DNA of 63,640 nt, the filler included. It is 13 parts of 13 records of this genome, joined end to end, with 100 filler letters (N's around TTAATTAATTAA, not from the genome) between each part and the next. Parts side by side here need not be neighbours in the genome. Positions count along the whole stretch, not along the records: positions 54,160 to 57,667 come from SRR7504441_3173; 12 more parts are not named here. The stretch is one strand, 5' to 3'. This document shows positions 4,309 to 58,816 of this stretch, piece by piece (positions within the stretch are counted from its first letter, which is position 1; each line of letters opens with the position of its first letter). Below the pieces are notes generated by a model. That model was not told the origin of the DNA. It saw only the letters and a program-made list of their open reading frames with translations, and searched no databases. Made by a program: the position numbers and the translations under genes.

Positions 4309-4408
4309 NNNNNNNNNNNNNNNNNNNNNNNNNNNNNNNNNNNNNNNNNNNNTTAATTAATTAANNNNNNNNNNNNNNNNNNNNNNNNNNNNNNNNNNNN
4401 NNNNNNNN
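4309..4408. other. Artificial contig linker N44-TTAATTAATTAA-N44. Also at 8153-8252, 13795-13894, 17079-17178, 26017-26116, 36221-36320, 39550-39649, 43143-43242, 46621-46720, 50188-50287, 54060-54159, 57668-57767
   Basis: Identical 100-nt block with a six-frame stop linker occurs 12 times, and genes are truncated at it. Confidence 0.98.
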
Positions 4409-13762: not shown

Positions 13763-14327
13763 CGAACTCCTGATAAACCCGGCGCAGCGCAGCCNNNNNN
13801 NNNNNNNNNNNNNNNNNNNNNNNNNNNNNNNNNNNNNNTTAATTAATTAANNNNNNNNNNNNNNNNNNNNNNNNNNNNNNNNNNNNNNNNNNNNGGCGGC
13901 AGGTGCTGGCTGCCCCAATGGCCGTTAGTACCAGCATTGTGTTGATGCACTTGTCGAGTACGCTTCACCCTCCCGCAGGAGGCACAGCGCTGATTGCAGT
14001 GATCGGATCAGACAGAATGCACGATCTCGGTTGTAATGCTAGATATAAGCTAGCGGCCTGATCGGTGTGCGGCAGGGTTTCTGTGGGTGGTCTCACCGGT
14101 GATGATGAGTGCGTTGGTACTACTTGTGGTCTCCTTGATAGGTAATAATCTGCTCGGTATCCAGTATCCGAGCTATTGGCTCGGCGGTGACACAATACTC
14201 TGATACCGTGTAATCAACGAAATTCGTATATTGTGTATGAGTGTTGTCTATATATATCTAAGAGTGCGCCATTCAGTATGCATTCAGTACTTGCGTTGCA
14301 TTAATCGTGAACTTATAATCATCACAG

Positions 14328-16559: not shown

Positions 16560-17178
16560 TGACTTTATTCAACGGACGCGGCTTTCGGATGCGTGCCGGC
16601 CGGCCGGCTCCAGCCAGCTGTTCCTCCTCACAGCTGGCGGCTGCGCGGTGGGCCTCGCTCTCGCCCTGTACCTCGCACTGGGCCGCCAACAGTGCCGCAC
16701 CTTTCGGCCATCTGACCCCGCCAAGAAAAGGCAGCGTGCACCTTCGACTGCGAGCCCGCCCGGCGTCAAATCGCCGCCGAGACTGCCAAGAGGGTCGGCG
16801 AAGCAAAGGGCACGGCCGCATTTGCGCTGCAGTGCGGTGAGGAGGGGGGTGCTCTGGCGACCATCATCAGCGGCGACCTCAACACAGTGGCGGGCACCCC
16901 CGAGCTTGAGTTAATTAATAAGCTTGAGTGCTTGCGAACGGCCGGTTTCACGATTTTGACATTAATGGGAGACTTAGTAACAGATCGCCATCATATAGCC
17001 GTCATATAGCCCAACTCGAGTTTGCGAAGCTCGCCGCAAGGCATTTGGCTGAGCACTATTCGATTGCTAGCGTACTGCNNNNNNNNNNNNNNNNNNNNNN
17101 NNNNNNNNNNNNNNNNNNNNNNTTAATTAATTAANNNNNNNNNNNNNNNNNNNNNNNNNNNNNNNNNNNNNNNNNNNN

Positions 17179-25286: not shown

Positions 25287-26116
25287 TAGCGGGCGTTTGA
25301 AATGTGCGGGCTAGGCGTTGGTCCAGCAGCTCAAGGATGAGGTTGGGCCAAGCGCTATACCGATAGGAGATAATGCCGAGCAAGAGCCAATCTCAAACAC
25401 TTGGCCACGGCCCAACATGACCGTGGATGTCGAACAAACTAACACGGCTTGCTCCGCTATTGACAAATTGAGATGATTCGTCCCTTTCAGTCGACGAATA
25501 ATGCCACTTAAGGAGGCATGGCTCTGATCAACAGCGGTAGAAGATGCTTCTAAGATCTTCTAACGTTATGCAGTGTGATCGAACGGCAGTGCTTCCGGAT
25601 CCGCGTATTGTACTAAAAACGTAAAATCAAATTCAAGTGAATTTACATAGTTAAATATTGATCAATGCTATCGATTTCAAACTCCTTTCCTGTTGACCAC
25701 TTGCTTGTTGGCACCTGCAACTAATCGGTGTAATCAGTTACCTGTTCAGTTGCACTAATGACTTGTATCAACAAGAGCAACCTGTTGCACAAGCTCACTA
25801 GGTGCAATTGAACGCCTAGCTCTCCCCCGAGCTAGCTCCTGATCCTCCTATTTTGTTAATCAAGTCGACAATTGCACTTCCTTCAGGAACTAATGGCACA
25901 TGTAGTTTCGGCGGGTTTGTACACGTATTAGTTGCCATCCGGTCCTTAACTGCAGATGCATAGAGCGTCTGCAATTGTGTTATTGTCGCTTGAAGCGACT
26001 GCAAATTGAGCCCAAGNNNNNNNNNNNNNNNNNNNNNNNNNNNNNNNNNNNNNNNNNNNNTTAATTAATTAANNNNNNNNNNNNNNNNNNNNNNNNNNNN
26101 NNNNNNNNNNNNNNNN

Positions 26117-29100
26117 TGCAAAAGCTCACCAGCGCGTCACGCGCTTGCTTTCACAGGCGGCCAAGGAAAAAGCCTGCGCTGCACTGTACAAATGGCGCAG
26201 GTGGAGTGAAGATGAGAGCATCTGTGCGCCAAACCTGGCAATGGCAAGTTGGTTTGCTAGGCAGGCGCTCGTAAAACGAGCACTGAGTGACTGGCGCCAA
26301 GTGGCAGCACAGACTGTGATGGACGCTTGGCTGTACCAGCAATATGTCAAAACCTTCCTCAGATACTGGTCAGTGTGGCTGGTGAAAAGCCTGCAGTCGG
26401 CGCGCATTATGAAACAGGCTGAGTGGCATTGGGAGCAAGCAGCGTACGCATCTGGACTCTCGAGCTGGCGGAGGTGGATTACATTGGTGTATCGACAAGC
26501 ACTGTCGAGGCAGGACGCTATCCTTTCACATCTCTTGATTGGGCTGGATTGGCTCCGCTTGAACTCCGCCATAGCTCAGCGCGAAAGAATCGCCATGGCT
26601 CGCGCCCAATCCGAGTGGCAGCACAAAAACTCGCAAACTCTAATGCTTGGCCTGGTCTACACTTGGGAACGCGAGAAGGCCGATTTCCTGATAACCCGGA
26701 AGGCTAGAATGCACTGGCTGTTGTGCAGCGCTCACGATGCGATCTCTGCACTGGCTCAAAACGCACATGACGGCCTTAAAGCGCAGTACCAGCAGGCGGA
26801 GGCCAAGTGCTCGTGGGTGTATCAGTATTTCGACACGTGGAGGTTCTTAGTCACAGAACGGCTCTATCAGGAGCGCCTGGTACAACCTGTGGTCGAGAAC
26901 CGGCTGGCGCTCCAGTTTCAAGCTGCGCTAGTGCTGTGGCATCAAGTATGCATCAACGAAGTGCGGCTTCGGCACAATGCAGTACTAGCCCAGAGATGTT
27001 GGCGAGACATCATAGGCACCCCTCGGGCGTGGAAGCAGTGGCACACATACGCCCAGGACAGGGCGGTCCGAACTCTAAGCTACTTGATGGGACTGGACCG
27101 GTGGCAGCACTTCATGACAGGCTCAGCGTTTTTCAGCTGGCTTCGTTTGGTCCAACACATGAAGCTGCATGCGTTCTCTTTTATTCGACATTGGCGATGG
27201 CTAGCAACCTCATCGCTCTCAAAGTGGCGGCAGTATGCTGCGTCGAATCAAGAGCAGTTCGGGCTTCGGTTGCTGGCCAAAGACCACTGGAGTGTGCTGG
27301 AAGCGATGCGAGCTTTGATCCGGTGGGAACTGTACGGTACAGCCAGTCAATACACAGACACCCGCCATTCAAAGGCAATTCAACACTGGAATCTCACTGA
27401 GCGCAGGTCAGCGATTGCGAGATGGAAGCCACAAGCAATTGAGGACGGCATAGCAACTCTTGCAATGGCCACGGGTCGCAAACAATCCCGATCCCGGATG
27501 CTGCGTGATGGAATCAGGTCCTGGCACGAAATCGCTCTCCACCAACGCCGAACGTGGACAGCTCACAGGTTTTGGCGGCTATCGTCAGGAATGGTGGCAT
27601 GGTATCGTTATCACGACGGCACAACGCACGCTCGAGCGGTTGCTGGTGTTGCATGCAAAATGTGGCAACACAGTCAGTTGAGGGATGGGTTGGCAAGGAT
27701 GTACGTTCAAGCCAGAGCTGAGCGGCTCTGGAAAAAGCTCTTTAGAACAGCTACAGGACATTTTAGAGACGCCCAACGAATAGCAGCATTGGACGACTGG
27801 ATATCAGCTACTGAGCAGCTGCAGATGCGTCAAATGGCGAAGCATTTGTTCAGAGGATCGAGTCTGCGAATGGCTTTCAAGCACATGCGGTGGTGCTGGT
27901 CTGAGACTCAGGAAGACGATTCTATTCTTGACCTCTCTGTGCAGTCATGGCAAGCAACGTGCAGGCATCGTCATCTGCTACAATGGCACAGCGTGTATAC
28001 CGCTGCTGTGAGGACTCAGGTTGGCGTACGAATCGCTCTGAGAGCTTGGGCACACGTCAAGTGCACAGCTTTGTATCACAAGTGGCGGCAGGTGGCAGTG
28101 CAGATGAAGTGGCTGATGTTGGCCGGCCTTGAGCGCTGGATGCAGCTGTGTGCAGTGGAAAGGTCGTGCAAGGTCGGGGCACTTCATTGGTGGGAGCGGA
28201 GGGCTGCGAGAGTCCTGGCAACACTTCATTACAGAATACGCAATGTACGAGCACACGCCCGGCTCCGCCAGTATCTTCGTCAGAACATTATTCAGTTCAA
28301 GTATTGGCGTGGCTGGAGGAGCCTGGGGAATGCTCAGGAGCGACGGAGGCTCCAGAAGGACCTGCGCAGTGCTGCATCAGAGCACTGGAACGTCCTTGCC
28401 CTTGACAGGGCGTTCGCAACGGTCTGTGATAGCTGTGACGCGGAACAGGTGCAGAGCAAGCTCCTAGGGAAGGCATTGCAACACCGCAAGAACACTGCAA
28501 GGAAGCGCGCACTCGCTGCCCTGCTCGCTTCGGCAAGAGTGGACGGGCGCCATATGGATGCATTGCGGCTGGGTTTGTTTCACAGCAACGCTGCTCGGGT
28601 GAAGAAAGGTATGCAGCACTGGCATCAGGTTTCTGTTGCCAAGTATGTCGCCATGTCAAAGCTGGAGCGCGGGGTCAAATTCCACGTAATATGCAACGCT
28701 TTCCAGATGCTTCGCCTCTGGAGGGATTCGGCAGCCCAGCACGCACTGAGGCTGCAGCGAGTGCACCAAAGCATTGCTCGGCTGTGCATTATCACCCTGC
28801 ACAGATGGCAGCTGCACACAGTGCTCTGCTGGCAAGTCGAGACTACGTGTGCCCAAGCCTGCGTGGCGTGGGCATCTTCTGCGCTCAAGTCCGGGTTGAG
28901 GAGTTGGGTCTCTGATCACAAGGAGGCCGAGCAAGCCAAACATGCGAGGCTGTTGGCGCTGCAACAGTGGCAGATGGCGACTGAATATCAGAGCCTCTGG
29001 CAGTGGAAGCGCTGGGCAGAATCCGACGCAGCACGAGAGGCTCAAATGAGGACAGCCTGCATCAGCTACGCAGCGCGCATGGCCACGTCGGCACTCCATT

Positions 29101-32100
29101 ACTGGCAGAATCTGGCGGCGCGCGCAGCGTCTCGACAGGCGTTTTATGGAGCAAAGCTTGCGTCTCTCTTCGCAAGGTGGAAGCGTCAAATGGACCAGAA
29201 GGTAGCAGACTTGGTGCTGTTGCTGCGGGCAAGGCAAGCATGGACAAACAGGCAGTGCTTGGTTACTCTGCATGGCTGGAAGGAGCGCACTGCATCGGAC
29301 AACTCTCATGTCAGCCGGTGGGTGCACTGGCAGTGGCTGCAAAAGGCTCGCTGGCTGCGGTACTGGAAAGCCTGGTTGCGGACTCAAGTTGTCTTGTGGC
29401 AGCGGCGCTATCAGGTAAAGCTCTGCGTGGATTTCTTGCAGATCTCCAGGGCGTTCAAAGCGTGGCGAATGGTCACGCACTTCGGCAGCAACGAGTCAGC
29501 GAGCTTCGCGCTCGCCTGGCAGCGTCGACATGCTGTTCGATCCACTGTTGCTGCGTGGCGGATCTGGCTCCGGAGCCGGCTTGAAGCTTCATTCGTGATG
29601 ACATCTGCAGCCAGTCACCGAATCGTCCATTTGACCCGACTGGCGTGGCGATCGTGGCAGGCAAGCACTCACTCCGCTCGGGTGTTCTTTACCTGTGCCT
29701 GGCACGCGGAGCGAGCTATGCTCAGGCGCGGGCTCGGTGCATGGCGCCAAGCTCAATCTACCCAACCAGGCCGCGCCTTGCTCAGCGCTCGTAAGGTATG
29801 CTGCTTCCTCAAGCTGCGAGCCTTCAGGCGGAAGCTGGCAGAGCAGAGGAGCGCAGCAGTCAGCCGGGGGAGAGCCTTGATTCATGTGGGCCGATCGGCC
29901 ATCAAAGCGTGGCAGGCTCAAGGGCGCAAGAGGTTGCAGGCCAGTCGGGTAGCTCAGATGGCTACAGATTACTCGAGCTACAACCGGCTCAAGTTCAGTT
30001 GGAGCTGGTGGCGGGATCATCTGGCGTTAGGGCTGTCCGACCGCAGTGCAGAGCTCAAGGCTAGAGTCTGGTCGGAGCACACGGCGGGTAGCGCGGCGCT
30101 GTACACGTGGCGGTGTTGGATCAGAGCCAGGCGCGGCCAAGGAGCCTTGAGTGCGAGGCTAGAACTCGAGAGGAGGAGGCAGCTCGGAGACTGGGCCAGG
30201 CGCTCCGCCCGAGATGTGCTCGTCACGCTTAAAGGTCTGGTGGTGGATAGGCATTCGTTCCTCACTTCGAAAGTGCTGTGGCGCGAGACTCAGCAGCACC
30301 GCGCGCTCCACCACTGGCACCGCACGCTGAGCGAGCGCGCACTGGATACGGGCAGACTAGAGCGTGCTGCAAGCCTGTGGCGCCTAACAAGACTGGCACG
30401 TGGCTGGAGCTGGCTGCGTGGGTACCAGCAGCAGTGCAAGGAGGAGCTGTACGTGTTCAAGCAGTTCAGGAACATATGGAGGGCGAGGTGTGTGCTCGGG
30501 GCTCTGCGAGTGTGGAGAGAGCAGGCTGACGAGCTCCAAGTCAGGGCGCTGACCTCGGCAGTTGCAAGCAAGCGCATGAGGCGCAGGCTGGTACACAAAG
30601 CATGGCACCGCCTGCAAGCCCACACGGAAGAACTCGCGCTCCGCACACGCAATCTTTCTCGACACGCTCGCCAATGGCGGACAGCGGAACTGACCTCTGC
30701 TCTCAAGATCTTACGCTGCGAGGCAGAGAATGCGCAAAAGATCCTGTATGAAGAGGCTAAGAACAGGCAACTATCAACTGCAGCGCAAGATGTGCTGGAC
30801 GTGTGCCGGGTCTGGTTTCGGCACTGGCGCGGCCACGTGTCCCGCAAGCTGGGCGAGATCAGGAGCCGCATCGCGTCCGAATTCAAGTCACAGCTGAGTG
30901 CTCTCCACAAGCTGCAGCAGCAAGCTCACGATGTGCACACGGGTCAGTTTTCGGGCTTGATCGCCCGGTCTTACGTCCTTGCTTGCGGGCTGCACGTCTG
31001 GAGATTCTACCTTCGGAATCAGCTCTACCAGTTGAGCAGGCTGGTACCCGCATTCGATAAGTTCAAGGCTGGATTGATCAGGGCTGGATTTGCTCAACTT
31101 GGGCTGCACGCCGCTCAGAAACTCGCTGCAAAGGCTAGGCTCGTCAAAGCAAGAGCGCGTTGCAGGCTGCACATGTTAGGCGTGGCCTGGGCGCAATTAC
31201 GCAGCCATTCACGCGTTTGGCACGCAGTGTTCGAGAATGCAGCCAAGTTGCGGATATCTTCATTCGCGAGGGCGTTCCTGGATTGGAAGAGGGCTGCTTC
31301 GAGGTTGAAATACGCGAGTGTGCAGTTGGCCGCTGCAGACACATTCTGGACGATTCATAACGGCAGGTCTGCTCTTGATCTGTGGAATCAGAGCTGCCAG
31401 CAAGTATCGGAGGACATCCGCAGGGAGAGGTTTTACGCAATGCTTCACGACAAGCGTGCGCTCAGGCCCGTGTGGAGCCACTGGCGCCGGGTCAGCGGAT
31501 TGGCAAAGCGCGAGGCCCAGGGTGGCGCCTGGGGGACAGAGCACTATTGCGTTTGGCAGAAGAAGCATTACTGGCGGAAGTGGCACACATGGTCGCTTGA
31601 GCATTGCCACATTGGCTGCTGCATCCTGCTGGCACGGCAGCACTGGCAGACATGGATGCTCCGGTCAGCGGTGGCTTTGTGGCGGCAGCAGACTGTAAGT
31701 CAAAGCCACGCAGACAGCGCTAACGCGGCCTCGAGGGATCTGCTGAGAGGATTGAGACATTGGCGGGTGCACGCTGCAGTGCTCTCAGACCAGCAGAACA
31801 AGGCGCACACTGCGCTCGAGTACTTCAACCCGCACCTCGAGACGCTTGCTGCGCGGCTCTGGCGACACCAAGCCGAGCAGGCACGGGCGGGCGCGGGCTG
31901 TGTATTGCAAGCTGTGGAGGCATACCGAAGGCGGCTGCAGACAGGTGCCTTGCACACCCTGGCTGACAGCGCCTCGGTGCGTGTGGCGTCACGAGGCAGC
32001 CTGCAGCGAGCCTCAAGCCACGTGCGATCAGCCGCTGTTGCATACCTTCGTCGGTGGCATTCAGGCACGCTCCGCGCACAGGCGAGTGGATTTTCGGGCC

Positions 32101-35100
32101 ACCAAGCCGCTATATTCTGGCAAACCTACTGGCTGGCCCGGTGCATCCACAACCTGAGGCAGACTGCAGCCGTCTCGGCCTCTAAAGCTCAAGCAGTAGA
32201 CCAGTTCCAGCGGTTCTGGTGTCGGGAGGCGCTGCGGTGCTTTGCGAGGTACGCGTCCCGCGGCTCGCTGTTCTGCTCGAGGTTTGCAGCGATGCGCACT
32301 AGACTGCCCAATTTCAGCAACATGGAGGTGCGTGTGGACGGTCAGTTGGCGGAGCTCACTCCTCAGGCGAGGGACGAGTTGATCAGAGATCTGGCTCAGC
32401 AGATTGGGAGGCAGCTCGGGCAGATCCACGTCAGCTCGGTGCTCGCAGGCAGCATCATCCTCCGGCTCGAGGTCTCGGGCAAGTCGCTGCAGATGTCGCA
32501 GGCCCGCAGGCTGGTGGGGCGCACGCTCGGAGGATTCGTATGCCGGGCGGTTGTTGTTACTGCGCCAAGCCTTAGAGATATCACCGCTGCAATGGGTCGA
32601 CTGAGCTGCTGCTCGAGGGCCATCGGAATGCTGCAGGCGGCGCTGCTCCGATCGCGGCAGGCACGGAACCGTTTGGCTGCGGCACACGCGCAGATGGCAC
32701 ATCATCGCTGTCGTATGCATCTGAGTCGATGGCGGCAGAACGCCGCGCTGGTGTATGCGGAGTGCCAGCTGCTGCAGGAGGTAGGCGAGACCAGTCATCA
32801 GCTGCTCGTCGCTCAGTCGCTGCACGCGTGGCGAGAGACTGCTGTGCGCGCCACAGCGGCTTCTCGCCAAGCGAGCAGCCACTGGGCTGTGAGAGAAGGA
32901 GAATTAGTACGCCAGTCGTGGCTGGTGTGGCAGGGCAAGTGGAAGCGCTCAGCGGATCAGCTTTCCACGCTGTACGATGCAGTCGTCGCGCTGAACCGAC
33001 GAAAGCTAAGCTCAGGGCTGAGCTGCCTGCGGGCTCGTCCTGAAGAGGCGGCTAGGCAAGCGAGGCTTGCATCCCGCGCGTGTCGTTTCTTCTACTGCCT
33101 GCATGTGGCTCGGGCATTGCTAGTCTGGAGAGCCGCCGCAGAGCTGAATCGAGTAGAACAGAGGGACGCGCGCAAGGCCTGGATGAGCACTAGAAGCCGT
33201 GAGCTTGCTGGGGCATTCGGAGAGTGGCAGCTGTTCGTCACTCGCAATCTGATAGCCGGATACGGAATCCATCAATGGCACGCCAGGCAGCTCGCTCAAT
33301 CCTGGCTCCGGTGGCGTGAGTCCACCGGCGCAGCGGCCCGTGCCGCCGTCGCCGCACGCCGCGCGGTGGAGCACGTGGAGCGGACGGCGCTTTCGAGTGG
33401 GTTTTTGGCGCTCGTGGATGACAAGAGGGCTCAGGCGCGGGTGGAAAGCCTGAGGAGGGTGAGGCAGTCGGAGCGGGCCAGACTGCAAGCTGCCACGGGC
33501 TGGTGGCGGCTGGCGACCGGTGATCGGGTGCGAGCGGCCGGGGCGTCGTCGTGGGCGGCCAAGCACTTGGTGAGGGCTAGTCTGCAGGCGGCTGTGGCGC
33601 TCTGGCAGGGCAGGGCTAGATTGATGGGCCACCGAGCGAGCGTGTGGCGTCACGGCGCTGCACACGGCCACCGCAGCGCAATGAGCTCCGCTCTCGGCCT
33701 CTGGTATGCATCTCACCAGCGCGAGGCCGCGACAGCTCAGGCGGTCGAGAGGTGGCAGGCCAGGCGGCTTGGGGCCAAGCTATGGGCGGCGTGGGCCCAG
33801 TGGATTTCGATAGCCGGGAGTGCGGGCCGTGAGCGACTAGCGCGGCACAACTTGCTGCACTCGATGCTCGCTCGCGTCGTGGCCGGGATCCGGCTCTGGC
33901 AGCGGCACACCCGAGCCAGCTGCGACGCCACAGCCCGGGCAGTGCAGGCTGAGCGCACGATGGAGCTGTACAGACTGAGCTACAGCTGGGTGTTGCTCAC
34001 CGCGCACGCTGCTCGTGCGGCCGCGCAGGCACGTGCGGCCAACCAGCGGCACACCTCGCAAGCCGAGGCACAGCTGCGGCACAGCATCAGCCTGTGGCAA
34101 AGCAGGGCGAACGCCCGGTGCCAGGACGATTTGGTCGCCGGGCGGGCGCTGGCGCGGGCCAGTTACTACCGCCAGGCGATTGTGCTGGCTGGCTTGAGGG
34201 AGCACAGGATCCAGGCGCAGCTCGAGCTCATGTTGCTCAATAACGGCACACTCCGTTATCTGGCCGCGGCGCTGTCGATCGCCTGGCGGCGCTGGGTGCG
34301 GGTGTGCCGGCACTCACGGCCGGTGCTCGGTGGACGGGTCGAGTCGGTTGAGCTGAAGCTGCTCGGGCGGGCGTTTGGTAGGCTCAGACAGGATACGGAC
34401 AGCCAGGTCGCGGTAGTGGCGGCCTCGTTGCTCGCAGCGCCGCACTGGCGGCACAGCCGTCTGCGCTCGGGATGGCGAACCTGGCGGGTCTGGCGGCCGG
34501 GTGGGGCTCAGATTCCGTTGGGACTGCTCCCGCTGGCTAAGGCGTTTGTGACGTGGCGGACAGTGGCCGTGGGGTCAACGCAGAGGCTGATGGAGGAGGA
34601 GCTGGCGTTGCTCCATCGCCTCGGCCGGTGTTGGCAAATATGGCGGGAGCTCACGGATGCGTGGGCAGCCGAGCCGGTAAGCCCTGCCATGAATGCGGAG
34701 CGGGCGTCTGTGTACTACACGAGCCGGCAGCTGTGGCTGTGGCTGGATGGCTGGTCGCGCTGGCTGCACCGGCGCAGCATGGACGCGCTGCTGGGCGAGG
34801 AGAGGGCGGCAGCAGCGAGCGTGCACTGGGCTGAATCCAGCATGCGGCGTGCGCTCAATCTATGGAGAGACTGGTGTGCTGAAGCCGTTCGCGCGGAGAG
34901 TTTGCTCGGGCACGTGCTCTCGAGGGGCCGGTCAGAGCTATTGTCGTGGGGGTTTGAAGCGTGGCGCGACTGGACTCGATTGCTGGCTAGGCTCGGCACA
35001 GGCGGGCAAGAGGGAGCCGACTGGAGCCGGCCACGGGCGCTGACCCGTGCGGTGCTCGGCTGGCGTCGGGGGACGGCTCAGCGGCTCCAGCGGGGGATGG

Positions 35101-35873
35101 AGTGGGAGCTGGCGCGCTTGCATTACGCCGGGCGCTGCTGGAGGACTTGGTGCGATAACACAGATTACTCCGACGGACAGATCCTCATCCAGCAAGCGAT
35201 CATCTACCACACGAACAAAGGAGTGGCAGCCGTGCTCTTTGGGTGGCAGGCCGCCTGCCAGCAGCGCAGACGGCGCCGACGGGCGAGGGGCCGGCTGTGG
35301 CGAGGCTGGACGCTGCTCCGCCGGCACTCTGCCCGGCAGGCTGCTGCTGCCACAGCAAACGCCCGAGCGGTGCAGCACTACGGCAAGATGAGAACATCCG
35401 GGCCGCTGCTTCGGTGGCAGTGGCAGCACACAAGGGAGCTAGCCGTGGCGTTACTCCATCAGCGCCAGGAGATCAACCAGCTGCAGCTCGGATTCTCTCG
35501 GTACCGCTGCGCCGCGGCTGAGAAGGCATACGCCAACGCCCAGCTAGTCTACACCTCAGAGCGGCGATCCCAAGCACAGAAGCAGCGGGCACTGGGCCGG
35601 TGGAAGGGAATCAAACGGTCGGGCCGGCATGCAAGGAGACTGCAGCCGAAGCCGTCGAGCAGTCGGAGGGCGCTGGCCCCGAGGAACTCTCTGGCTGTGG
35701 AGGCGTGCGACGGTGGGAAGAAGCCGGTGGCGAGGGCTCTGGTGCAAGGCCGGTTTGAGCTGTGGAAGGAGGCGACAATGGATGCGGACACGGAACGGGT
35801 GTATACTGCAGTGCAGCACTGGCAAAGCGCTGAGTTGAGGCAAGCGCTTGGCTGGTGGCATCGGGAATCATAA
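26117..35873 (+). CDS. Giant Sfi1-like centrin-binding repeat protein (>3240 aa, 5'-truncated)
   Basis: Uninterrupted ORF with dozens of A-x3-W-x4-L-x3-(F/W/L)-x2-W(R/K) repeats that resemble the Sfi1 repeat. Confidence 0.75.
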
Positions 35874-36112: not shown

Positions 36113-36178
36113 TAAGCTAGGCTCGTACATACAGCCGTACCTAATAAGCTACTAATAAGCTAGGCTCGTACCTACAGC
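36113..36178. repeat. 23-bp imperfect direct repeat with a patchwork spacer
   Basis: taagctaggctcgtac(a/c)tacagc at 36113-36135 and 36156-36178. Confidence 0.8.
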
Positions 36179-36932
36179 TTTACAATCAGCTCGGATGAGT
36201 TTCTGGGTGGTTGATTATGGNNNNNNNNNNNNNNNNNNNNNNNNNNNNNNNNNNNNNNNNNNNNTTAATTAATTAANNNNNNNNNNNNNNNNNNNNNNNN
36301 NNNNNNNNNNNNNNNNNNNNAGTCGGCCACGGGCGGATCTGCATGTTTTGGCAATGATCCCGAGCTCCCGCGCCCGAAGCCCAACTGACTCACAAGACTT
36401 GGAAATGGATCTATCTGCTGATTTAATAAAACCTGTAGGACTTTTCACTCGTCGAGATGGCCAGAAGAACGAAGAACCGCGCAGGGCTGGTCCTGCTGGC
36501 GGCGTCCGGCGCGTGGGCGACTTTTATCATAAGTAGCTACAGTACATGTACTACGTGCCTTCTTCTCACAACGGACTAGCAGTGCAACGGAACGAACAGA
36601 AGTGCAGCGGAAGTGGATCCGAACGAGCCTCTAAGTCAGGAGGACAACGACACCTGCATCTCCGCAATGCCTGTCGGCCGCCTTACTAATTAATTTTGTA
36701 TTAATTAAAGTTTGAGTACACAAGCGCGTTTCCGGGTCGTGTGAGTTTCGGCTACTCAGTATTGTAGCCGGCTGGCCGTACTCAGTAGCTCGGCTCAGTA
36801 GATGCACCTTCTCGGTCTCGGCGAGCGCACCGGCGAGTTAGCTATCTAAGGGATATAAAGGCCTCAGTTTGCAGCCGATCATCAGCATTTGATAAGAGCC
36901 AATGTTAACGGACTCATTCCCAAACAGGCGCG

Positions 36933-39549: not shown

Positions 39550-39649
39550 NNNNNNNNNNNNNNNNNNNNNNNNNNNNNNNNNNNNNNNNNNNNTTAATTA
39601 ATTAANNNNNNNNNNNNNNNNNNNNNNNNNNNNNNNNNNNNNNNNNNNN

Positions 39650-43142: not shown

Positions 43143-43242
43143 NNNNNNNNNNNNNNNNNNNNNNNNNNNNNNNNNNNNNNNNNNNNTTAATTAATTAANN
43201 NNNNNNNNNNNNNNNNNNNNNNNNNNNNNNNNNNNNNNNNNN

Positions 43243-45890: not shown

Positions 45891-46620
45891 TCATCTCCGG
45901 GGCGATTGTGACCTGCCCGACCGCCTCCTGTGGTCATAGTCCCTGCTATCACGTCTATCGTAGTCCCTGCTATCACGCCTGTCATAGTCCCTGCTATCAC
46001 GCCGGTCATAGTCCCTGCTGTCGCGCCGGTCATAGTCCCTGCTATCCCGTCTGTCATAGTCCCTGCTGTCGCGTCTGTCATAGTCCCTCATGTCGCCTCT
46101 GCTATACTCTCGGAGCTGCCGTCTTCCAGCCTCCCTGCTCTCGTGCTGGCCAGGCTCCTCCCTCTCGCGTCCCCGGCGCGACTCCTCCCTCTCGCCACCG
46201 CCTGCCGCACCGCTCGCCACAGCCCGCCGGCCGGCTGCACCAACAGATGATTTCTGGTTATTGCACAGGCCAATGCTGTCGTTTGCAATACTATTCTCAA
46301 TCCAGCCTCTTACGATCATATATCCTGCGGCACCCAGATCGGCCGGCAGTCGGCCGGCAGGGCACCGAGGTGGAGCTTGCCTCCGAAGTGGTCCTGCAGC
46401 CGCGCAGTGTTGTCCAGAATAGAAACGAACGCGCCACACACGTCACACACGCGGAGCTCTTTGGCCTTGTGCCCTCGCTCCCCGTCGGCCCTCGGCTCCG
46501 GCTTGATCGGGGCCTTCTCGAGCCTCTCCATCTCCTGCTTCATCTGCTCCACCTCCAGCAACGCCTGCCCCCGGCTGACCAGCGCTCATCGTGCCGGGCC
46601 GCCTGTTTCATCTGGTCGAC
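45891..46620 (-). CDS. LUC7: LUC7-family U1 snRNP protein (3' part) with an RD/RS-rich tail
   Basis: LRVCDVCGAFVSILDNTARLQDHFGGKLHLGY (second zinc finger). Introns 46325-46365 and 46565-46602 (GC). Confidence 0.9.
45933..46088. repeat. Coding 24-bp tandem repeat (about 6.5 units) encoding RDYDRRDS
   Basis: gtcatagtccctgct(a/g)tc.cg.c. units inside the LUC7 tail. Confidence 0.95.
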
Positions 46621-46951
46621 NNNNNNNNNNNNNNNNNNNNNNNNNNNNNNNNNNNNNNNNNNNNTTAATTAATTAANNNNNNNNNNNNNNNNNNNNNNNN
46701 NNNNNNNNNNNNNNNNNNNNATACCGGGAGCCTGGGTGCTGCACCTTGCTTTGAGCGGCACTAAAACTTGTTGATTGAAAACCTGTCGATGATTTGTTGA
46801 CAGAATTGGATAGATATAACAAATGATTAAATATGTCATCTAGTGTGACAATCATTCAACTGTCAATCTGCAAACAGGACTCTGTACGTACAATCATGTC
46901 TGACGTGTACGTACGCAAAAAGCCAATACAATCTTCTCGTAGCATTAGGTC

Positions 46952-48720
46952 TCAAAACTGAAAGTGTGCCCGGAAAGGTTCGACACTCTTGCAGCTGTGC
47001 GCTTGTTTGAGAACCTCGCCTAGCTGAGCATCTTCCAAGCATCCAAGCACGCTCGCTAGATGCTCCCAGCCAGACTCGGCTCCCGGATGCAGCGACAACG
47101 CTTTCAGAAAGTACCGAGCCGCCTCGGCATGGTTACCCTGCCTGGCGTGCGAGATCGCGATATTATTCCAGGACCGCACGTACCCCGGCTTGAGCGCTAG
47201 CGCCTGCCAGCCGTTAGCCGGGCAGCACACACCTCCGGACCTGGTTGTACGCATTCAGTGCTTCGCCCGGCTCACCGCCGTTCGCTTGTGTCGCCCCCAG
47301 TTTATTCCACAGCGAGTAGTTCTCAGGGTGGAGCTGAAGCGCCTTTTTGAGCCAGACCACGGCCCGCTTGTGCTCGTGGCTGAGGTTGTATAGCACCCCC
47401 AGCGCAGTAAACAGCCCAGCACTCGCCGGGATCACAGTGGCGGCCCGCTCAAATGCTTTGATCACAACCTCCACTCTAGGCTCGGTGTTCGGTGGGACCA
47501 GGCTCGCTTCCTGGGCGGCCAGCCAACTTAGAAGGAACTGGCAGGCTTGCTTGCGGTTGATCTCATTCGTGCAGCTTACACCAAGCTCCAGCAGCGTAGC
47601 GCCGTCCTCAGGATTGATTTGATACGCTTGCAGCAGCGCCGCAATTGCCTGCTGGTCGTTATCGCGCTCGGCATGCGCCACCCCCAGTCCGCGCCAGGCC
47701 GAGCCCAGCTGCTCGTTGTCATCGCTCGAGCGGCATACAGACTCAAGCTCCGCTATCGCCTGCCCTCACTCACACCCGCCCGCTGCGGCTGCGGCTGCCT
47801 GGTTGAGTTGACCCGTCTCAAGCGCCTGCAGCCCGGTCTCGAGCTGGCCCGGGCCCTGCTCGGTCTCGAATTCGTATTGCGGCGGGTCCGGGTCAGCGGA
47901 GAGCGCCTGGCCGCAGTCAGACCCCCCCGCGAGGGATGCTCGTGGCACATCTGCTAGCTCGCCCATCCCATCCTGCCGCAACCGATCGGCGTACCGCTCG
48001 AGCACGGCCTCCGTGTCCTGCGGCAGGTCGGCCGCTTCCGACCCCGGGCCTGCCCGCATGCTGACTGTTGGCATACAGCCAGCCGTACCGCCGAGCCCCG
48101 CAGTGGCTTTTCGCCAGCACTCCTCAAAGTTGGAGCCGTCTGGGTTGAGCCCGGCCTCCTCGAGCTCCGCCTTCTCTATCTGCCGCCCGCTCTCACGCAG
48201 GCCTGGTGGTTGCTTGCCTCCCCCATGCACTCCCACTGGGCGTTATGCATCTCGATATGCGCCTGCGACTGCTCCCCCGATGCCCCCACGAGCCCCCACC
48301 TTCATCTGTTCGATCTTCCGGAGTATCCGCTGCTGGCCCTCGTCCGCAACCTCCACAGCACTGCCTAGGCACTCAGCGCCTGCCCCGACCGGCCCACCCA
48401 CCCAGACGGTACGCTCAGCTCGTCCTCGGGCAGTGCAGAGAGGCCCGCCTGGACCTGCGGTGAGGGGCCGCTAGAGCTCAACGGACCTGCTGGGTGTTCC
48501 AGCCCTCCATGAACTCCGTCTGCCCGCCCTGCAGCGTCGCTGCCTCCGCCGCGGCCATCCCGGACACCTGTCGGCCGCGCCGCCGCGGCACGGGATGGAC
48601 CGCCAGGCCGGAGTGCTGGGCCTGGTCGGGCTGGGTCGGGACCAGCCCAGCCCGCTGCTGCCCGGCTGTGGTCTCGGCCACGAACTTGGACGCATTGCTG
48701 GCACCGCACGCGCCTTCCAT
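46952..48720 (-). CDS. PEX5: Peroxisomal targeting signal 1 receptor, at least 7 exons
   Basis: N-terminal MEGACGASNA (conserved Cys). TPRs AWRGLG.AHAE, LGVSCTNE, LWNKLGATQANG, ALALKPGYVRSW. Introns include 47204-47240, 47760-47798 (GC), 48180-48217 (GC), 48455-48486. Confidence 0.9.
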
Positions 48721-49943: not shown

Positions 49944-50345
49944 TGAAGCGAGTGCTATTAGAGTGCTATATAATTATTTAGTTACTATGTATACAATCAT
50001 GTACGCGTCTTGAAATAAAGAGGGCATTTTCTACTAAAGTAGGTATATACGTAGGTCCTAAGTAGTCCTATAAGGCCATATCATATTGTTTACTTTTTGG
50101 AGTGTGATTTCAAATTTGTTCCCTATTGCGCGCGTCGTTTTAATTAAAGTTTTTTTGGGCTTCGTAGACCTTTGGCTTCGTAGACCTNNNNNNNNNNNNN
50201 NNNNNNNNNNNNNNNNNNNNNNNNNNNNNNNTTAATTAATTAANNNNNNNNNNNNNNNNNNNNNNNNNNNNNNNNNNNNNNNNNNNNCGAAGTGGCACAC
50301 TGGATGGTGATAAGGTGCTGGCCCTGGCAGAACTGCCACACCTCC

Positions 50346-53585: not shown

Positions 53586-54059
53586 CTATAATTGACTCTT
53601 CTTCCTAATCTTGAGGTGTTGCTCTACTAGAATCCCGAGCTCGAACGAGTCCAACGTCTTGGAAAGCGCCTCGAAGGCGGTCTGCTGGGCTGCCCCCCGC
53701 TCCGAGTCCGGCACGATCTCAACTGTCCCGTCCTCGCCCACCTGCCACGTGTAGTGAAAGCTCCCGTTGGCCACCTCGCTCAGGAACGCTCGGTCGGCCC
53801 TGCTGATCTCAGGCCGGAGCACCACTGATTCCACCCCCTTCTGGATCGCACTGTTCAGGGCGCTGTCCGTGCCCACTGCGTGTCGCTCCGGCGCGAAAGT
53901 CAGTCGTCCGTGCCCAAAGCTGTCACCGCGTAGGATGTTGGGCGAACCAGTGCGGAATAGGTTCAGCGCCTGGAAAAAGTGGCCGTTCCCCAGTGAAGTG
54001 AAGAATCTGGCCCCTGGCTCCAAATGCTCCCGCCTTATCGCCGGGAATCCGCTCTCTGC
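53586..54059 (-). CDS. 3' fragment of a hypothetical protein
   Basis: 145+ aa open frame running from the contig end to a stop, convergent with the previous gene. Confidence 0.55.
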   Translation of the reverse strand, partial: AESGFPAIRREHLEPGARFFTSLGNGHFFQALNLFRTGSPNILRGDSFGHGRLTFAPERHAVGTDSALNSAIQKGVESVVLRPEISRADRAFLSEVANGSFHYTWQVGEDGTVEIVPDSERGAAQQTAFEALSKTLDSFELGILVEQHLKIRKKSQL

Positions 54060-54268
54060 NNNNNNNNNNNNNNNNNNNNNNNNNNNNNNNNNNNNNNNNN
54101 NNNTTAATTAATTAANNNNNNNNNNNNNNNNNNNNNNNNNNNNNNNNNNNNNNNNNNNNCGCAGACACAAAGTATGCGCTCACGACACTATTACCTGGTA
54201 CCTAGAGTACGAGTTCGTACGTATACGACGGTATTTCAAGTACTGTAGAGTCTAGATCCCGGCGCGCA

Positions 54269-57200
54269 ATGGGCGCAGAGGCTGGCCCGAGCGAGGACAC
54301 CTGGTCGCTCAGCTCCGCGCTTCCAGCCCAACCCGGCGGCTCACCGGTCCCCGGCGTGTCCCGGGCCGGCCAACTGGACTCCGAGGAGCGCCAGCGGGCG
54401 ATCGGCGTGCTCCGGGCCGTCGAGGGCGGCTGGCGCAACAGGCTGGCCGGCACCCAGCTCTGCGGGGCCATGCTGCTGGCCGGATTCCCGCCAGGGTACA
54501 CGGAGGCGTTCCTCCACGCGGCCGACCCGAGTTGGTGTGCCGCCCAGGACGGGCGCGGGCTTGTGATCGCCGGACCGAGCTGGCTGGAGCTGCTCGGTTG
54601 CCAGAAGTGCGAGTCGGGCCCGGGCACGCTGTGCAGTTTCTTCCACCTGATGGAGGCGGCGCTCAAGTCGGCCGGCGCTGGGCAGCCTTGCGGCGGACCG
54701 TGCGGGCGGGCGCCGGGCGGGGGCGAGTTGGTTCCGGCGTGGGAAGCTTGGATGGCCGCGGAGGGGGAGCCGCGCAGGCTGGAGCTCGAGGCCACGATGG
54801 AGCAGCTGGCGCAGGCGGCGCTGACCGCGCAGGAAAATGCGCTGCTCCCGTACCAGCATGTCTGGCCTGTGCGCCAGTGGCTGCGATGGCGGAGCTCGCG
54901 CAGGGCCGCTGCGATGCCGCAGACCCTGCCCGGCAAGCCGAGCTGGCTGGACCCGTCGCTCCGCTACTACAACGTGCTGCTGGAGCTCGCGCCGTACTTT
55001 GAGACTCGGCTTGGCATGGCCGGGTCTGCGGTGGCTGAGTGCGGCGCGGAGGAGCTGGCTCGGGTACTCCGTCTGGCGAGTGAGCAGACCTCTGCCATGG
55101 CAGAGGGATGGGCGCTCGAGCAGCCATCGCTGCTCGAAGTGGCGCAGCAGCTGCCCGGCGAGCTCGAGCTTGACTCATACGCTAAGCTGGCCCAGCCGCT
55201 GCTCTCAACTGACCAGCCTGCAGGAGATATGCCGCTAAGGAGCCTAGTGCTGGCGCCTCTTGAATGGATCAGCTGCTGCCGCAACTGGGTTGAGCAACTG
55301 CTCGCCGCGTTCGGCTCGTCGGTTGAAGACTTGACGGGCCTTGAGCAGTGCCATGCGAGCCTTGCAGAGATGGCACAGCTGCTCCGAGCGGAGCTTGGGT
55401 CGGAATCAACTGGCTTGGCGGCAGAGGACAACATCGATGGTTCTGAGCCTGACCTGATTCACCTCAGATCGGCCGACTGTGCTGTTGACCTGCTGCTAGA
55501 CCTGCAGGTGATCGGGCAACGAGGCCCAGAGCAGGCAGGTGAGAACTGGCGGCTGCTACTCCTGCGAGACCGGCTGGTTGTAATAGCTGAGCACACAACC
55601 GACCAGGCTAGGCCTACGCTGGAGGGGTGGCTCCAGCTGAGCCGGCCTGTGGACGACAGCGAGGCAGTGTGGGACCCTTGGTGGTTTGAGCTGAAACCTG
55701 ACTGTGAATCACTAGTCTACTTCACTCGCCCGAGCGGTGAGGGCAAGAGGCAAGCTGGCGAGATCCAGCTGCTGGCGGCGTCTGTCGTCCAGCAGGGCTC
55801 GGAGCTCAATCTTGATTCGATGGATCAACGGCACAGTCTGCGTGTGCCTGGATTCGATGGCGAGCCTACGCTGAATGAGTGGGAACTGGCGCTGCAGAAG
55901 TCGATTCAAATGCTCGGCGTGCAGCATCAAGATCAGGCTGCTTCGAGCTGGTTGTTGTTGAGTTCAAATCTAAGCCGGGTTTCGTACCATTCTGTCGAGG
56001 GCTCAAACAGTGGCATCATTGGTATTGATACCACACTTGCTCGCTTCTTAGATTCTGAGTTGGATGCCCTGAGTGACAAGGAAGTATCCAGTGCTTTCGA
56101 GGAGCTATGTACAGTCCGGGGTGCGGCCTAGTGCCTGAGATTGGTCCATGATTTTGGTTCAGGTTTATCCGACAGCCACATGAGCTTGAGTGGTGAGGCC
56201 AAACGAGCCCTCCTTCGAGTTGCTTCAAGAGATACTGAATACATCCCTCCGCCAAAGCTTTTCTGGATCGAACTACCCACTGCTGAGCACAATGCTAGGC
56301 TCAAAGCTGAACTGGATGCTGCCCAGATTACTACGCTGGCTCAGCAGAGCAGCATAAATCGGCGCGAGGGCTTATTTGATTTGCTCTCTTTGGAGGCTCG
56401 AGATGCGACTGTTGCGCTGAGGTCGATGACGTCTGATGGACTGAGCGACCAGGAGCAATTGAGCCAGCAGCGCCGGGCCGCGCAGGAGCGGTGGGGCGAT
56501 TGCAGGTGCCTGGCGGTATCGCTCGAGGAGCACTGGGACGATAACACCACGCCTCTGCTCCCTGCAGGCAACCTGGACCGTGCGCTGTGTGCTGAGTTGG
56601 CTGGTGCAGCGGCGCAGGTGGATCTGCAACTGGTGGCTGGATTGAAGCCGATCCCGACTGCCCACCACGCTAGATTCATCGCCTGCATCCGGGAGTCGGT
56701 TGCTTTGGCACTTCAGGTGGATAACTCGATGGTTCGAGTTTGGTTGGTGGATGAGTCGAGCAACCGCATATCGCTTGGATTGTTAGCAGTCCCAGAGTCC
56801 ATAGCTTCGCGATCGACTGCGGTGCTAGATGTCAGAACTTTGGCTGGGGCGCTTCAGACGCAACTCAGTGATTCTAGTAGTGCTTTGTTGGCCAGTACTC
56901 TGGGCCAGTTTATTGCCGACAACAGCTCTGATGCGACTTGGAGGAGTTTGGCTTGTTACGGGGACGGGCAACAGCTCAAATCGGCGCTCATTGCGCTGGA
57001 TCGAGGTTATAATCAGGGTGGGCTACGGCTACGACCGGATCCAGCTGCATTAGCACGCTGGCAGGATGAGGTGGACATCGAGGGGGTCCAAGCACTCGAC
57101 CGCACTGCACTGGGTCAACTTGCCACGCACATTGCTGTGCAGGTGCTGTGTGCCGCGCTGAGCTGTAGTGTTCATAACTAAGTAGCATTCTAAGTAAGCA

Positions 57201-57538
57201 ACATTCTAGGTGCCGCGCTGAGCTGGATTAACACAATTCTGCAGGTCGGGACGGATCTTAGTTTGAAGCAGCTCAATCAGCAAATTGATGCCGCAGAAAT
57301 GGGAGAGGGCTTGATGTCTTATTCTCAATTCGAGCAGTGGCTCACGACAGCGCTGCACTATGCACCCGAGAGTGCACAGGAGATTGCAGAGCATGTAGCG
57401 CTGCCAGAGCTTGTGCGCGACGCTTCGTGGGTGTATGCCTCGCCGGAGGCGCAAGCGATCGCCGAGTGTCCGCACGAATCTTCTTTCACAGAATGGTGTG
57501 CTGGTGCTGTCTCGCCGTCGAAACGTGAACTATTGTAA
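54269..57538 (+). CDS. PH-domain protein with a DH-like helical region and a C-terminal SEA-like domain, at least 3 exons
   Basis: PH-like EGWLQL...WWFEL...LVYF...EWELALQ and DH-like LVLAPLEWI. Introns at about 56113-56162 and at 57143-57244. Confidence 0.65.
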
Positions 57539-57767
57539 GCTATGTCACAAATTACGGATACACCCGGGCAAAATAGTTTGGGGGTACAGATAATTACTTG
57601 ATAATATATAAACTTCTCGTACAATAATCAAGTTCCCGGGGGGGGGGGGGGTACGAGGCCGGAAACTNNNNNNNNNNNNNNNNNNNNNNNNNNNNNNNNN
57701 NNNNNNNNNNNTTAATTAATTAANNNNNNNNNNNNNNNNNNNNNNNNNNNNNNNNNNNNNNNNNNNN

Positions 57768-58816
57768 ATGCTTGCTAATTTGGGCGGGAATTTTGGGTGA
57801 CACGTGTGGATTCGCTGCAGCTTCCACCGCAAGCTGCTTTTTGCGGCGATACAGTGCCGATTGATGGGCGTCCGGATGAGGTGCCAACGTCTGCAGGTTG
57901 GCACTCCATCAGGCACACGTGCAGGGGCTGGGTACCGTGCGGACATAATCGAAGCTATCGGCTCGTCGACTCTTTACAGTCCTGACAAATGTCGGCCTGA
58001 CCCATGCAACTCAGCCGCTGTGCTAACTCAGTCCTGTGACCAGTCTTCTTGTGCTAAGCGCTCAGCTTCCTCATTCAGGGTATATGCAGCATTGTCCGTG
58101 TCGGCAGCGTCAGCTAGCATTCGCTGGATCCGACCGAGTGCCTGAGTTCGCATCATGATTGAGCAGGCAAGGCTAGTGCCACTCACAAATGCAATAGTGC
58201 CGTTTTGCGGGAATTCCCCAGGCCAGCGCCCACCGCTGAGGACACCGAGCGCAATCATGCCATCTGGGCCCACTGACGGATGGAACACATCTTGAGTGAA
58301 CCACACAATCGGGCCCTGGTCCCACACTCGACACACACGGTGGGCATACGACCACCTCTTTGGGGTAAAACTCTGGGAGCACGATCTTGACACTCAGGTT
58401 TAGATCCTCATACGGCGACCCTACCGATCACGATCAGTGTACTTATGGAGGGGGGCTACCCCCAGGCCCCAAAATGGTGCCCTCCCAAACGCGATTGGCG
58501 TATCCGCCCTCACGGGCACCAGTGCCGTCCAGAAAAGTGCTCGGTCGAGCGGTCACGCCGGCACCCTCTGTCTCGCGCACCTTATCGAGGGCCTCGAGCT
58601 CCCGAACCACAATTTCCTTCGGCAGCAGGTGTGCCACTTTCAGCCGAGCTGCCTCCTGCAAAGCTGCCTCAGAAGCCAGTTGCACAAGCCCATGCGCTGA
58701 CTACCAGCTCTGGGGAGGGTGGGGGTGTGACTGCTGCTGGGATGGGATACGACTCAGTGCTACCACCAGCGGGCATTCATGCAGCGAAGGGTCACCTTCT
58801 CAGACCAGGCGGCCAT
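57768..58816 (-). CDS. Ubiquitin E2 variant (UBC fold without the catalytic Cys), multi-exon; ends uncertain
   Basis: Spliced WEGTILGPGGSPYE...LPEFYPKEGPIVWFTQDVFHPSVGPDGMIALGVL...W. Introns 58421-58459, 58316-58355 and an in-frame one of about 45 nt. Confidence 0.75.

Follow-up and report, generated by a model that had tools for sequence, protein, structure and literature searches.

A 44-nt insert between two copies of a 16-bp repeat in a short intron of an uncultured marine eukaryote

How does an intron come to measure 102 nt when the two other introns of its gene are exactly 42 nt long, and is it still removed in a single step? The question is raised by a nuclear gene of an uncultured marine eukaryote, which lies in the 63,640-nt stretch of DNA analyzed here (hereafter the window), made up of 13 short contigs joined by N44-TTAATTAATTAA-N44 linkers. 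A previous reading of this locus, the sequence-only reading, had proposed that a 16-bp target duplication and an AT-rich insert create a recursive-splice site inside the intron, which would let a genome with tight intron-length limits tolerate the insertion and might represent a route to new introns. The gene concerned is the following.

54269..57538, plus strand: host gene, from the first in-frame ATG (the presumed start codon) to the TAA stop, with three introns.

The host gene has a long open frame in which the distribution of G+C by codon position is coding-like. Its product would be a protein of unknown family, and one stretch of it is PH-domain-like, which is a lead only: there is no Pfam family at E ≤ 0.01, six relatives are found at E ≤ 0.001 (among 1.84 billion representatives), and the Atlas feature matches of the protein are to PH/RhoGEF clusters, with values of 0.79–0.82 that are under the 0.9 level. 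Across the window, a Rfam scan gave no matches and a Pfam search of 31 ORFs found no domains split by introns. The contig bearing the host gene terminates in a poly-G run, and 54160-55618 and 55959-56185 (intron A included) are the parts of the host-gene stretch without read cover.

The structure of the long intron is decided by RNA, not by frame. Both RNA-run contigs that span the site (X1 record 4 and X4 record 12, from two studies, the latter from an oligo-dT library) skip 102 nt, and X3 has no contig across the intron. The two contigs join 57137 to 57240 with a joint that is ambiguous over 7 nt, and only one of the eight allowed joint positions, at cut +5, has GT..AG borders, which places the exon junction at 57142^57245. 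Once 57143-57244 is removed, translation reads ...THIAVQ|VGTDLSLKQL... This is an ordinary U2-type GT..AG intron, and its parts are as follows.

57143..57244, plus strand: 102-nt GT..AG spliceosomal intron (intron C), skipped in RNA contigs X1 record 4 and X4 record 12.
57143..57148, plus strand: 5' splice site GTGCTG, read from the sequence and unaltered by the insertion.
57150..57165, plus strand: copy 1 of an exact 16-bp direct repeat (GTGCCGCGCTGAGCTG).
57166..57209, plus strand: 44-nt AT-rich insert, composed of 9 nt, two imperfect 16-nt units and TAG, with the terminus TTCTAG.
57210..57225, plus strand: copy 2 of the exact repeat (GTGCCGCGCTGAGCTG), whose first GT and the preceding AG form the internal AG|GT.
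57226..57244, plus strand: original 3' part of the intron, GATTAACACAATTCTGCAG, which contains the 3' splice site CAG.

The 102-nt length given by the sequence-only reading is thus borne out by RNA, and the argument used to reach it, that frame restoration needs an intron of this size, fails: since the reading frame is equal on both sides of the insert, frame alone does not demand 102 nt. Fourteen in-frame GT..AG lengths, including the 60-nt unit 57150-57209, would remove the two TAA codons at 57179 and 57191. The 5' splice site GTGCTG is similar to GTGCGG of intron A (56121). The branch region is probably TTAAC (57228-57232), 13 nt before the 3' end, because introns A, B, and C all carry A-containing YTRAY-like motifs 12–15 nt upstream of their 3' ends.

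The anatomy of the insertion holds up. GTGCCGCGCTGAGCTG occurs exactly twice on the plus strand of the window (57150 and 57210) and nowhere on its minus strand. When the window was simulated 100 times under a first-order Markov model, no copy contained an exact direct repeat of at least 16 nt spaced 17–120 nt, which puts the repeat well beyond chance. The window itself contains 13 such repeats, mostly within tandem arrays. Similarity stops at the repeat borders on both sides, so tandem duplication is ruled out as the origin of the repeat. The insertion spans intron positions 8–67; neither the donor (57143-57148) nor the stretch 57226-57244 is affected. As had been noticed, the insert repeats itself internally, its 16-nt units (57175-57190 and 57191-57206) being 81% alike, and it carries the two in-frame TAA codons, a branch-like TAACTAAG and CTAAG. 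At 57204-57215, the sequence TTCTAG|GTGCCG displays the juxtaposed YAG|GT motif of recursive splice sites. With a G+C content of 32%, the insert differs sharply from the flanking exons (55–57%), the rest of the intron (55%) and the repeat (75%). At up to three mismatches its only match in the window is itself (shuffles with a match, 0/100), none of its 12-mers is found elsewhere in the 63.6-kb window on either strand, and the two 11-mer matches compare with about one expected by chance on our own estimate. No inverted pair joins its ends as terminal inverted repeats would. The window also has other small duplications: at 36113 there is a 16-bp repeat with a spacing of 43 nt, and at 40392 a perfect 28-bp tandem.

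A key element in interpreting this anatomy is what remains when the insert and one repeat copy are deleted from the 102-nt intron, which is a 42-nt intron. The sequence-only reading called this length typical, and it is precisely that of the two sister introns.

56121..56162, plus strand: intron A, GT..AG, 42 nt long and containing an in-frame TAG; the homologue P0002 is colinear without these 14 codons.
56568..56609, plus strand: intron B, GC..AG, 42 nt long, stop-free and in frame; X1 record 2 skips these 42 nt.

The joint of intron B is ambiguous over 5 nt; among its six possible positions, only GC..AG ends in AG and none has GT. With the 102-nt intron reduced in this way, the three introns of the host gene all measure 42 nt exactly and keep the frame; two are stop-free and one is GC..AG. 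A naive census of ORF-bridging introns gave a flat and uninformative length histogram, and pairwise ORF bridging is too ambiguous without RNA. When possible in-frame GT-AG solutions are counted at in-frame stop interruptions, 42 nt forms a local peak (10 of 32 sites), the individual lengths between 24 and 39 nt having 2–4 and those of 45–51 nt having 6–7. This peak lends weak support to the idea of tight intron-length limits, against which stand putative longer introns of 120 nt (21942-22061) and 144 nt (47388-47531). Two further leads were followed and abandoned. A mobile 42-nt intron family defined by CTGTGTGC..TGAG was dropped, as it comprised only introns B and C, in one gene, and consisted of low-complexity GC/TG-rich sequence. 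A loose end, ACTTTGTGT, which is the 9 nt before 56186 in X1 record 1, matches the reverse strand at 54165-54173, and was judged a chance match for a 9-mer.

The reading that we favor, and consider probable, is that 60 bp were added to a 42-nt intron by a single DNA-repair event and that its splicing remained an ordinary one-step process. The starting point would have been a 42-nt intron like the other two of the gene, in which a staggered break with ends about 16 nt apart occurred across intron positions 8–23. Fill-in on both sides would have produced the 16-bp duplication, while 44 nt of filler DNA were captured or synthesized between the ends; the tandem 16-nt units within the filler are suggestive of slipped synthesis. 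The insertion would thereby have come to sit between an intact 5' splice site (57143-57148) and an intact branch/3' region (57226-57244), its sole effect on splicing being a 5' site-to-branch distance longer by 60 nt. Since nothing but this distance would have changed, removal in a single step would still be possible. As a side effect, two in-frame TAA codons would have entered a formerly stop-free intron whose length stayed a multiple of three. What is inferred here is the direction of the change (by parsimony, insertion rather than deletion), the repair mechanism and one-step removal.

This reading accords with what is known of repair-mediated intron insertions, for which short direct repeats around fragments captured at staggered breaks are described as a signature in PMC3020277, as they are for new introns. 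Here too, a direct repeat of the target flanks a fragment unrelated to local sequence and, as in the Daphnia, Drosophila and Aspergillus insertions treated in PMC3020277, filler lies between short target copies and is spliced out. Unlike in these cases, an intron was already present where the insertion landed and no new intron position was created—the event does not demonstrate a route to new introns—and the repeats are clear of the outer splice sites, with 16 bp at the long end. Indeed, a filled-in stagger of 16 nt would be a long one, which counts against the repair reading. This reading also leaves unexplained why a repeat beginning with GT adjoins an insert ending with AG, which is a mild coincidence (about 1 in 50 to 1 in 250 on our own, after-the-fact estimate).

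The internal AG|GT motif is what speaks for recursive splicing; removal of the 102-nt intron in two steps, in whichever form, we regard as unlikely. In a recursive form, 57143-57209 (67 nt) would be removed first, and the regenerated CAG|GTGCCG would then be used to remove 57210-57244 (35 nt); in a nested form, also unlikely, the 60-nt unit 57150-57209 would be a self-contained splice-competent insertion, excised first so that a standard 42-nt intron is re-formed and spliced next. TTCTAG|GTGCCG indeed places a usable 3' site next to a 5' site that conforms to the local GTGCNG type, with the branch-like TAACTAAG and CTAAG located 17–28 nt before AG57209. The 60-nt unit has GT..AG borders and its excision would restore the empty site exactly, while the two 42-nt sister introns hint at a preferred length. 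However, neither a 57142^57210 junction nor a 60-nt skip is present in the two spanning RNA contigs, a weak argument given that contigs drop rare forms and are poor at intermediates. The second recursive step would involve a 35-nt intron with about 21 nt from 5' site to branch, which is shorter than any documented here, and with the outer splice signals intact nothing forces two steps. The fold of the intron RNA (MFE of -22.3 kcal/mol, z = +1.91) is no better than that of shuffles and has no stable structure pairing the intron ends together. Recursive sites (ratchet points, zero-length exons) of Drosophila and vertebrates, as covered in PMC10156609, are alike in that a YAG|GT within the intron could regenerate a 5' splice site, but they reside in very long introns (kb to Mb) of 15 kb to >1 Mb, the minimum host intron in the tabulated sets being 15.3 kb, whereas here the whole intron is 102 nt and the second segment 35 nt. 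Fungal stwintrons, with composite lengths of ~100–190 nt in PMC12403724, are alike in that one U2 intron could be nested in another and removed first. In stwintrons as defined there, however, the inner intron breaks up the donor, branch element or acceptor of the external one, which makes two steps obligatory, whereas here all three elements of the outer intron are intact and the insertion lies between them. The AG|GT motif is real, and nothing shows a need for two-step splicing.

The other alternatives to a repair event concern the nature of the insert, the history of the intron and the assembly itself. The 44-mer might be a tiny introner-like or MITE-like element that makes target-site duplications (TSD), carries its own 3' splice site, borrows a GT from the duplication and happened to land in an intron. 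This would match Symbiodinium-type introners, which carry a 3' site and co-opt a 5' site from the TSD, and more generally the anatomy of some families of introners, the intron-generating transposable elements, in which the duplicated target supplies the GT and the element ends in AG; the host is also a marine protist, and introners are commonest among these, all according to PMC9860276. Yet this explanation is doubtful, more so than two-step removal, since the insert is only 44 nt long and single-copy in all that was searched, has no terminal inverted repeats, and is flanked by a 16-bp duplication rather than the 3–9 bp given for TSD of marine protist and fungal introners in PMC9860276. The search for further copies of the insert, which the sequence-only reading had called for, found none in the window, and exact patterns found none in metagenome_contigs, viral_contigs or prokaryote genome_contigs, scans that diverged copies would escape. 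In metagenome_contigs, 313 pattern matches to exon 56612-57142 yielded none that was confirmed, and the host locus is probably absent from this collection, so the blank for the insert there says little about the organism's own genome and weighs only lightly against an element. The blanks in viral_contigs and genome_contigs exclude only identical source sequences there.

It is as unlikely as two-step removal, in our opinion, that the intron was always long, with a repeat that arose by local copying and could promote deletion, and with a merely coincidental difference of 42 nt between 102 and 60. The small duplications and putative longer introns seen elsewhere in the window are in line with this, and sequence searches yielded no empty allele or orthologue: no empty 42-nt allele was found, the single DNA run examined carrying the insert, and three protein word-index searches for an orthologue of the exon (with 56132/56165-57178, at lengths 'longer' and 'near', and with the read-through 56612-57535, in which TAA was read as X) gave no matches, weak blanks because such searches missed P0002, a true relative found by exhaustive HMMER. 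Nevertheless, a non-tandem 16-bp copy 44 nt away has no simple one-step origin except insertion between the copies, the G+C content of the 44-mer contrasts sharply with its surroundings, and the 42-nt remainder equals both sister introns exactly. Least probable is an assembly artefact, in which the insert or the duplicated 16-mer would be a mis-join. The fragmented, metagenome-type assembly, stitched from 13 short contigs, and the poly-G end of the locus contig are what would make one conceivable. However, the DNA-run contig X2 record 7 (189 nt, 57160-57348) starts inside repeat 1 and continues, gap-free and with no differences, across the insert and repeat 2 as far as the downstream exon, and RNA joins both exon flanks exactly at the GT..AG borders. 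A 16-bp repeat is also below usual assembly word sizes. Two qualifications attach to the contigs. X2 may be the sample from which the window was assembled, and at the left junction, where exon, repeat 1 and insert meet, the only cover from outside the assembly is 6 nt of X2 record 7. In addition, X1 differs from the window at four positions and hence comes from a non-identical population, and the spliced RNA contigs fit source cells with a 42-nt or a 102-nt allele alike; that the insert-bearing allele itself is the one spliced is what we infer.

Insertions flanked by a duplication are ordinary as mutations go, and the feature described here is real but ordinary and of modest interest. It provides a clean single example of such an insertion in a very short intron, an anecdote on intron growth rather than a new mechanism. 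Its significance could change in several ways. A 42-nt empty allele in the population, if found, would date the event and fix its direction, presence/absence polymorphism being the key evidence in Daphnia (PMC3020277), and further copies of the insert, if found, would make it a minimal introner. If the genome has a hard intron-length ceiling, this would make the internal AG|GT functionally necessary. Should the nested form of splicing prove true, the 60-nt unit would be a protist counterpart of a twin intron, made in one mutational step; it would illustrate how insertions are tolerated where a genome sharply prefers one intron length, and a like insertion in an exon would create a new intron at once. 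Finally, the pattern of 42-nt in-frame introns in this gene may be more worth following across the genome than the insertion is.

The main finding of this study is that the 102-nt intron at 57143-57244 is real, and so is the scar it carries, made of an insertion plus a duplication. It lies on the contig at 54160-57667, in a gene with two further introns, one of which (B) is described below.

54269-57538, plus strand: host gene, about 1,030 residues after splicing (arithmetic from coordinates), start codon inferred
56121-56162: intron A of the host gene, 42 nt, GT..AG, with an in-frame TAG; homologue support; outside read cover

When Logan contigs of four sequencing runs were aligned to 54160-57636, both RNA-run contigs spanning the site (2/2, from two different studies) skipped 102 nt, joining 57137 to 57240. 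One is an oligo-dT metatranscriptome contig (X4 record 12) and the other comes from a library labelled RNA-Seq, the RNA nature of which is a guess (X1 record 4); in the third RNA run, X3, no contig lies in the interval 57049-57270. The exon joint is ambiguous over 7 nt because TGCAG|GT is present at both ends, and GT..AG borders arise solely when the intron is placed at 57143..57244. The mRNA is thus read as ...THIAVQ|VGTDLSLKQL..., an exon structure that is confirmed by RNA and has the same junction as proposed in the sequence-only reading. However, the argument made there that restoring the frame needs a 102-nt intron does not hold. The reading frame is identical on both sides of the insert, the 60 inserted bases being a multiple of three, and translation is blocked instead by two in-frame TAA codons (57179 and 57191), both within the insert. 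Since fourteen in-frame GT..AG lengths can remove both stops, including 57150-57209 (60 nt), whose removal would restore the empty site exactly and retain 14 extra codons (VLCAALSWINTILQ), the 102-nt intron is not demanded by sequence alone. At the DNA level, a 189-nt contig with 0 differences (X2 record 7) is colinear over 57160-57348 and contains the final 6 nt of the first repeat, the full insert, the second repeat and exon, although X2 may be the sample from which the assembly derives. The spliced contigs are equally compatible with an intron of 42 nt or 102 nt in the source cells; 4 positions separate X1 from the window, so its population is not identical to the window's.

The anatomy of the scar, described in the sequence-only reading as an exact 16-bp repeat around a repetitive, AT-rich 44-nt insert, was borne out. 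Within the window, the 16-mer GTGCCGCGCTGAGCTG is confined, over both strands, to 57150 and 57210, and there is no similarity past it on either side, which rules out a tandem duplication at 57150-57225 and defines a repeat-insert-repeat structure. G+C is 32% in the insert, 75% in the repeat, 55% in the other 42 nt of the intron and 55-57% in the flanking exons. The insert consists of 9 nt, two imperfect 16-nt units (57175-57190 and 57191-57206, 81% alike) and TAG; the unit repeated in tandem at 57175-57206 is thus 16 nt long, as is the duplication on either side of the insert (57150-57165, 57210-57225). Against the remainder of the window, on both strands, the insert has no common 12-mer and two 11-mer matches, about one being expected by chance by our own estimate. 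Exact direct repeats of at least 16 nt spaced 17-120 nt appeared in 0/100 first-order Markov copies of the window, and the window itself has 13 such pairs, mainly tandem arrays. Other features of the window are as follows.

26118-35870, plus strand: open frame, 3,251 codons uninterrupted, coding-like composition, no Pfam family at E<=0.001
36113-36128 and 36156-36171: second 16-bp exact direct repeat, spacing 43 nt (23 nt if one mismatch is allowed), in AT-rich non-coding sequence close to a contig end
40392-40449: perfect tandem duplication of the 28-bp unit GCCCTCATAGAGCACCCCGGGCAGCACC, 30 matching bases at spacing 28
45932-46070: tandem array, 24-nt period, unit around GTCATAGTCCCTGCTATCACGCCG, within an open frame

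The length of the intron minus its insertion is shared by its sister introns. For intron B, the RNA-type contig X1 record 2 lacks 42 nt, placed at 56563-56604 but movable by 5 nt, as far as 56568-56609; the sole AG-ending placement, 56568-56609, is GC..AG, and no placement has GT. Removing this in-frame, stop-free segment changes ...LLPAGNLDRALCAELAGAAAQ... to ...LLPAAAQ.... As it lacks a stop and its length is a multiple of three, its retention would add just 14 residues, so that it may represent an optional, exitron-like segment. Support for intron A comes from a homologue: an exhaustive HMMER search with exon 1 (1.84 billion representatives) gave 6 relatives at E<=0.001, among which P0002 (44% identity) aligns through ...LCTVRG, reached at P0002 residue 152, and picks up again at P0002 residue 161, corresponding to residue 8 of the next exon, and is thus colinear across intron A without its 14 codons. 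Once the 60-bp unit is taken from the third, all three introns are exactly 42 nt and in frame (14 codons), as the idea of a typical 42-nt empty intron implied. More broadly, among 32 places in the window where in-frame stops break a long open frame, 10 admit a GT-AG solution of 42 nt (5 of the 12 with coding-like composition), compared with 2-4 per length of 24-39 nt and 6-7 per length of 45-51 nt, a weak but consistent sign that 42 nt may be the preferred length. This lends the proposed tight limits on intron length weak support; the window does not fix an upper bound, and two longer candidates, both unverified, measure 120 nt (21942-22061) and 144 nt (47388-47531).

The simplest history would be a single insertion event into a 42-nt intron, in which fill-in of both sides of a break with 16-nt staggered ends (intron positions 8-23) yielded the 16-bp duplication, and 44 nt of filler were captured or synthesised between the ends, the two 16-nt units of the filler suggesting slipped synthesis. 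Short direct repeats such as those around 57166-57209 are described in PMC3020277 as a signature of repair-mediated insertions and recently gained introns. This insertion reading appears well supported by the anatomy and the two 42-nt sister introns rather than by an empty allele. Because the insertion sits between an untouched 5' site (GTGCTG) and an untouched 3' part (GATTAACACAATTCTGCAG), in which TTAAC, 13 nt from the 3' end, is the probable branch region (A-containing motifs are present in introns A and B, at -12 and -15), the outer intron would retain every signal, the sole change being 60 nt more between 5' site and branch. One ordinary splicing step should thus suffice, and the intron RNA folds into no unusual structure (z = +1.91).

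Recursive splicing through the internal AG|GT, as had been proposed, is unsupported and unnecessary. The motif TTCTAG|GTGCCG is real, its GTGCCG is similar to the donor sites GTGCGG (intron A) and GTGCTG (the 102-nt intron), and the insert contains the branch-like TAACTAAG and CTAAG. However, the intermediate is seen in 0/2 spanning RNA contigs (a weak point, as contigs drop rare forms), the second step would involve an intron of 35 nt, 7 nt under the apparently standard 42, whose donor and branch are about 21 nt apart, and the unbroken outer intron does not require two steps. Moreover, known recursive sites sit, in the sets tabulated in PMC10156609, in introns of 15 kb to >1 Mb rather than 102 nt. 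A nested variant, in which 57150-57209 would be removed first to restore a 42-nt intron, seems sterically easier. This variant would not be a stwintron, whose inner intron breaks up a consensus element of the outer one (as defined in PMC12403724), since all three outer elements are uninterrupted here.

The duplication begins exactly with GT and the insert terminates exactly with AG, a mildly odd coincidence of about 1 in 50 to 1 in 250 by our own after-the-fact estimate. This arrangement, with a GT supplied by the duplicated target and an AG brought by the insert, is the mode of some introner families described in PMC9860276, but the remaining evidence points away from an introner-like mobile element. 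The duplication is 16 bp rather than the 3-9 bp reported there, inverted termini were looked for in the insert and none were found, and the 44-mer has no second site in the 63.6-kb window at up to 3 mismatches (shuffles matching 0/100). Exact patterns likewise went unmatched in the contig collections (metagenome, viral and prokaryote); these blanks are weak because diverged copies are missed and because the metagenome collection does not seem to contain the organism's own locus (0/313 pattern hits confirmed).

For the host protein, no Pfam family was found. By eye, GWLQLSRP...WDPWWFEL...LVYFTRP looks like a PH domain, which we treat as a lead only, and an Atlas feature search returned PH/RhoGEF clusters at 0.79-0.82, under the reliable level for such matches. 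In an RNA-type contig (X1 record 1), position 56186, 23 nt downstream of where intron A is predicted to end, is preceded by 9 unmatched letters; these match the reverse strand at 54165-54173, probably by chance or because the contig end is chimeric. G+C along the host gene on 54160-57667 declines from about 62% (54001-56000) to about 52% (56001-58000), and the 13 consecutive G at the extreme end of this contig (57639-57651) probably stem from sequencing or assembly and not from biology. The 63,640 bases comprise 13 short contigs of 3-10 kb, which are unrelated, so that genes either side of a linker are not genomic neighbours.

4309-4408, 8153-8252, 13795-13894, 17079-17178, 26017-26116, 36221-36320: first six linkers, N44-TTAATTAATTAA-N44
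39550-39649, 43143-43242, 46621-46720, 50188-50287, 54060-54159, 57668-57767: last six linkers, of the same form

All four runs aligned to the locus contig (4/4) are labelled as seawater or marine metagenomes or metatranscriptomes, and identity to the window is at least 99% in 12/12 aligned records; accordingly, the source is a marine eukaryote that was sampled without being cultured. The scar in its 102-nt intron is a new example of an already known kind of event and is of modest interest; an intron length held sharply constant across the organism would merit a genome-wide look.
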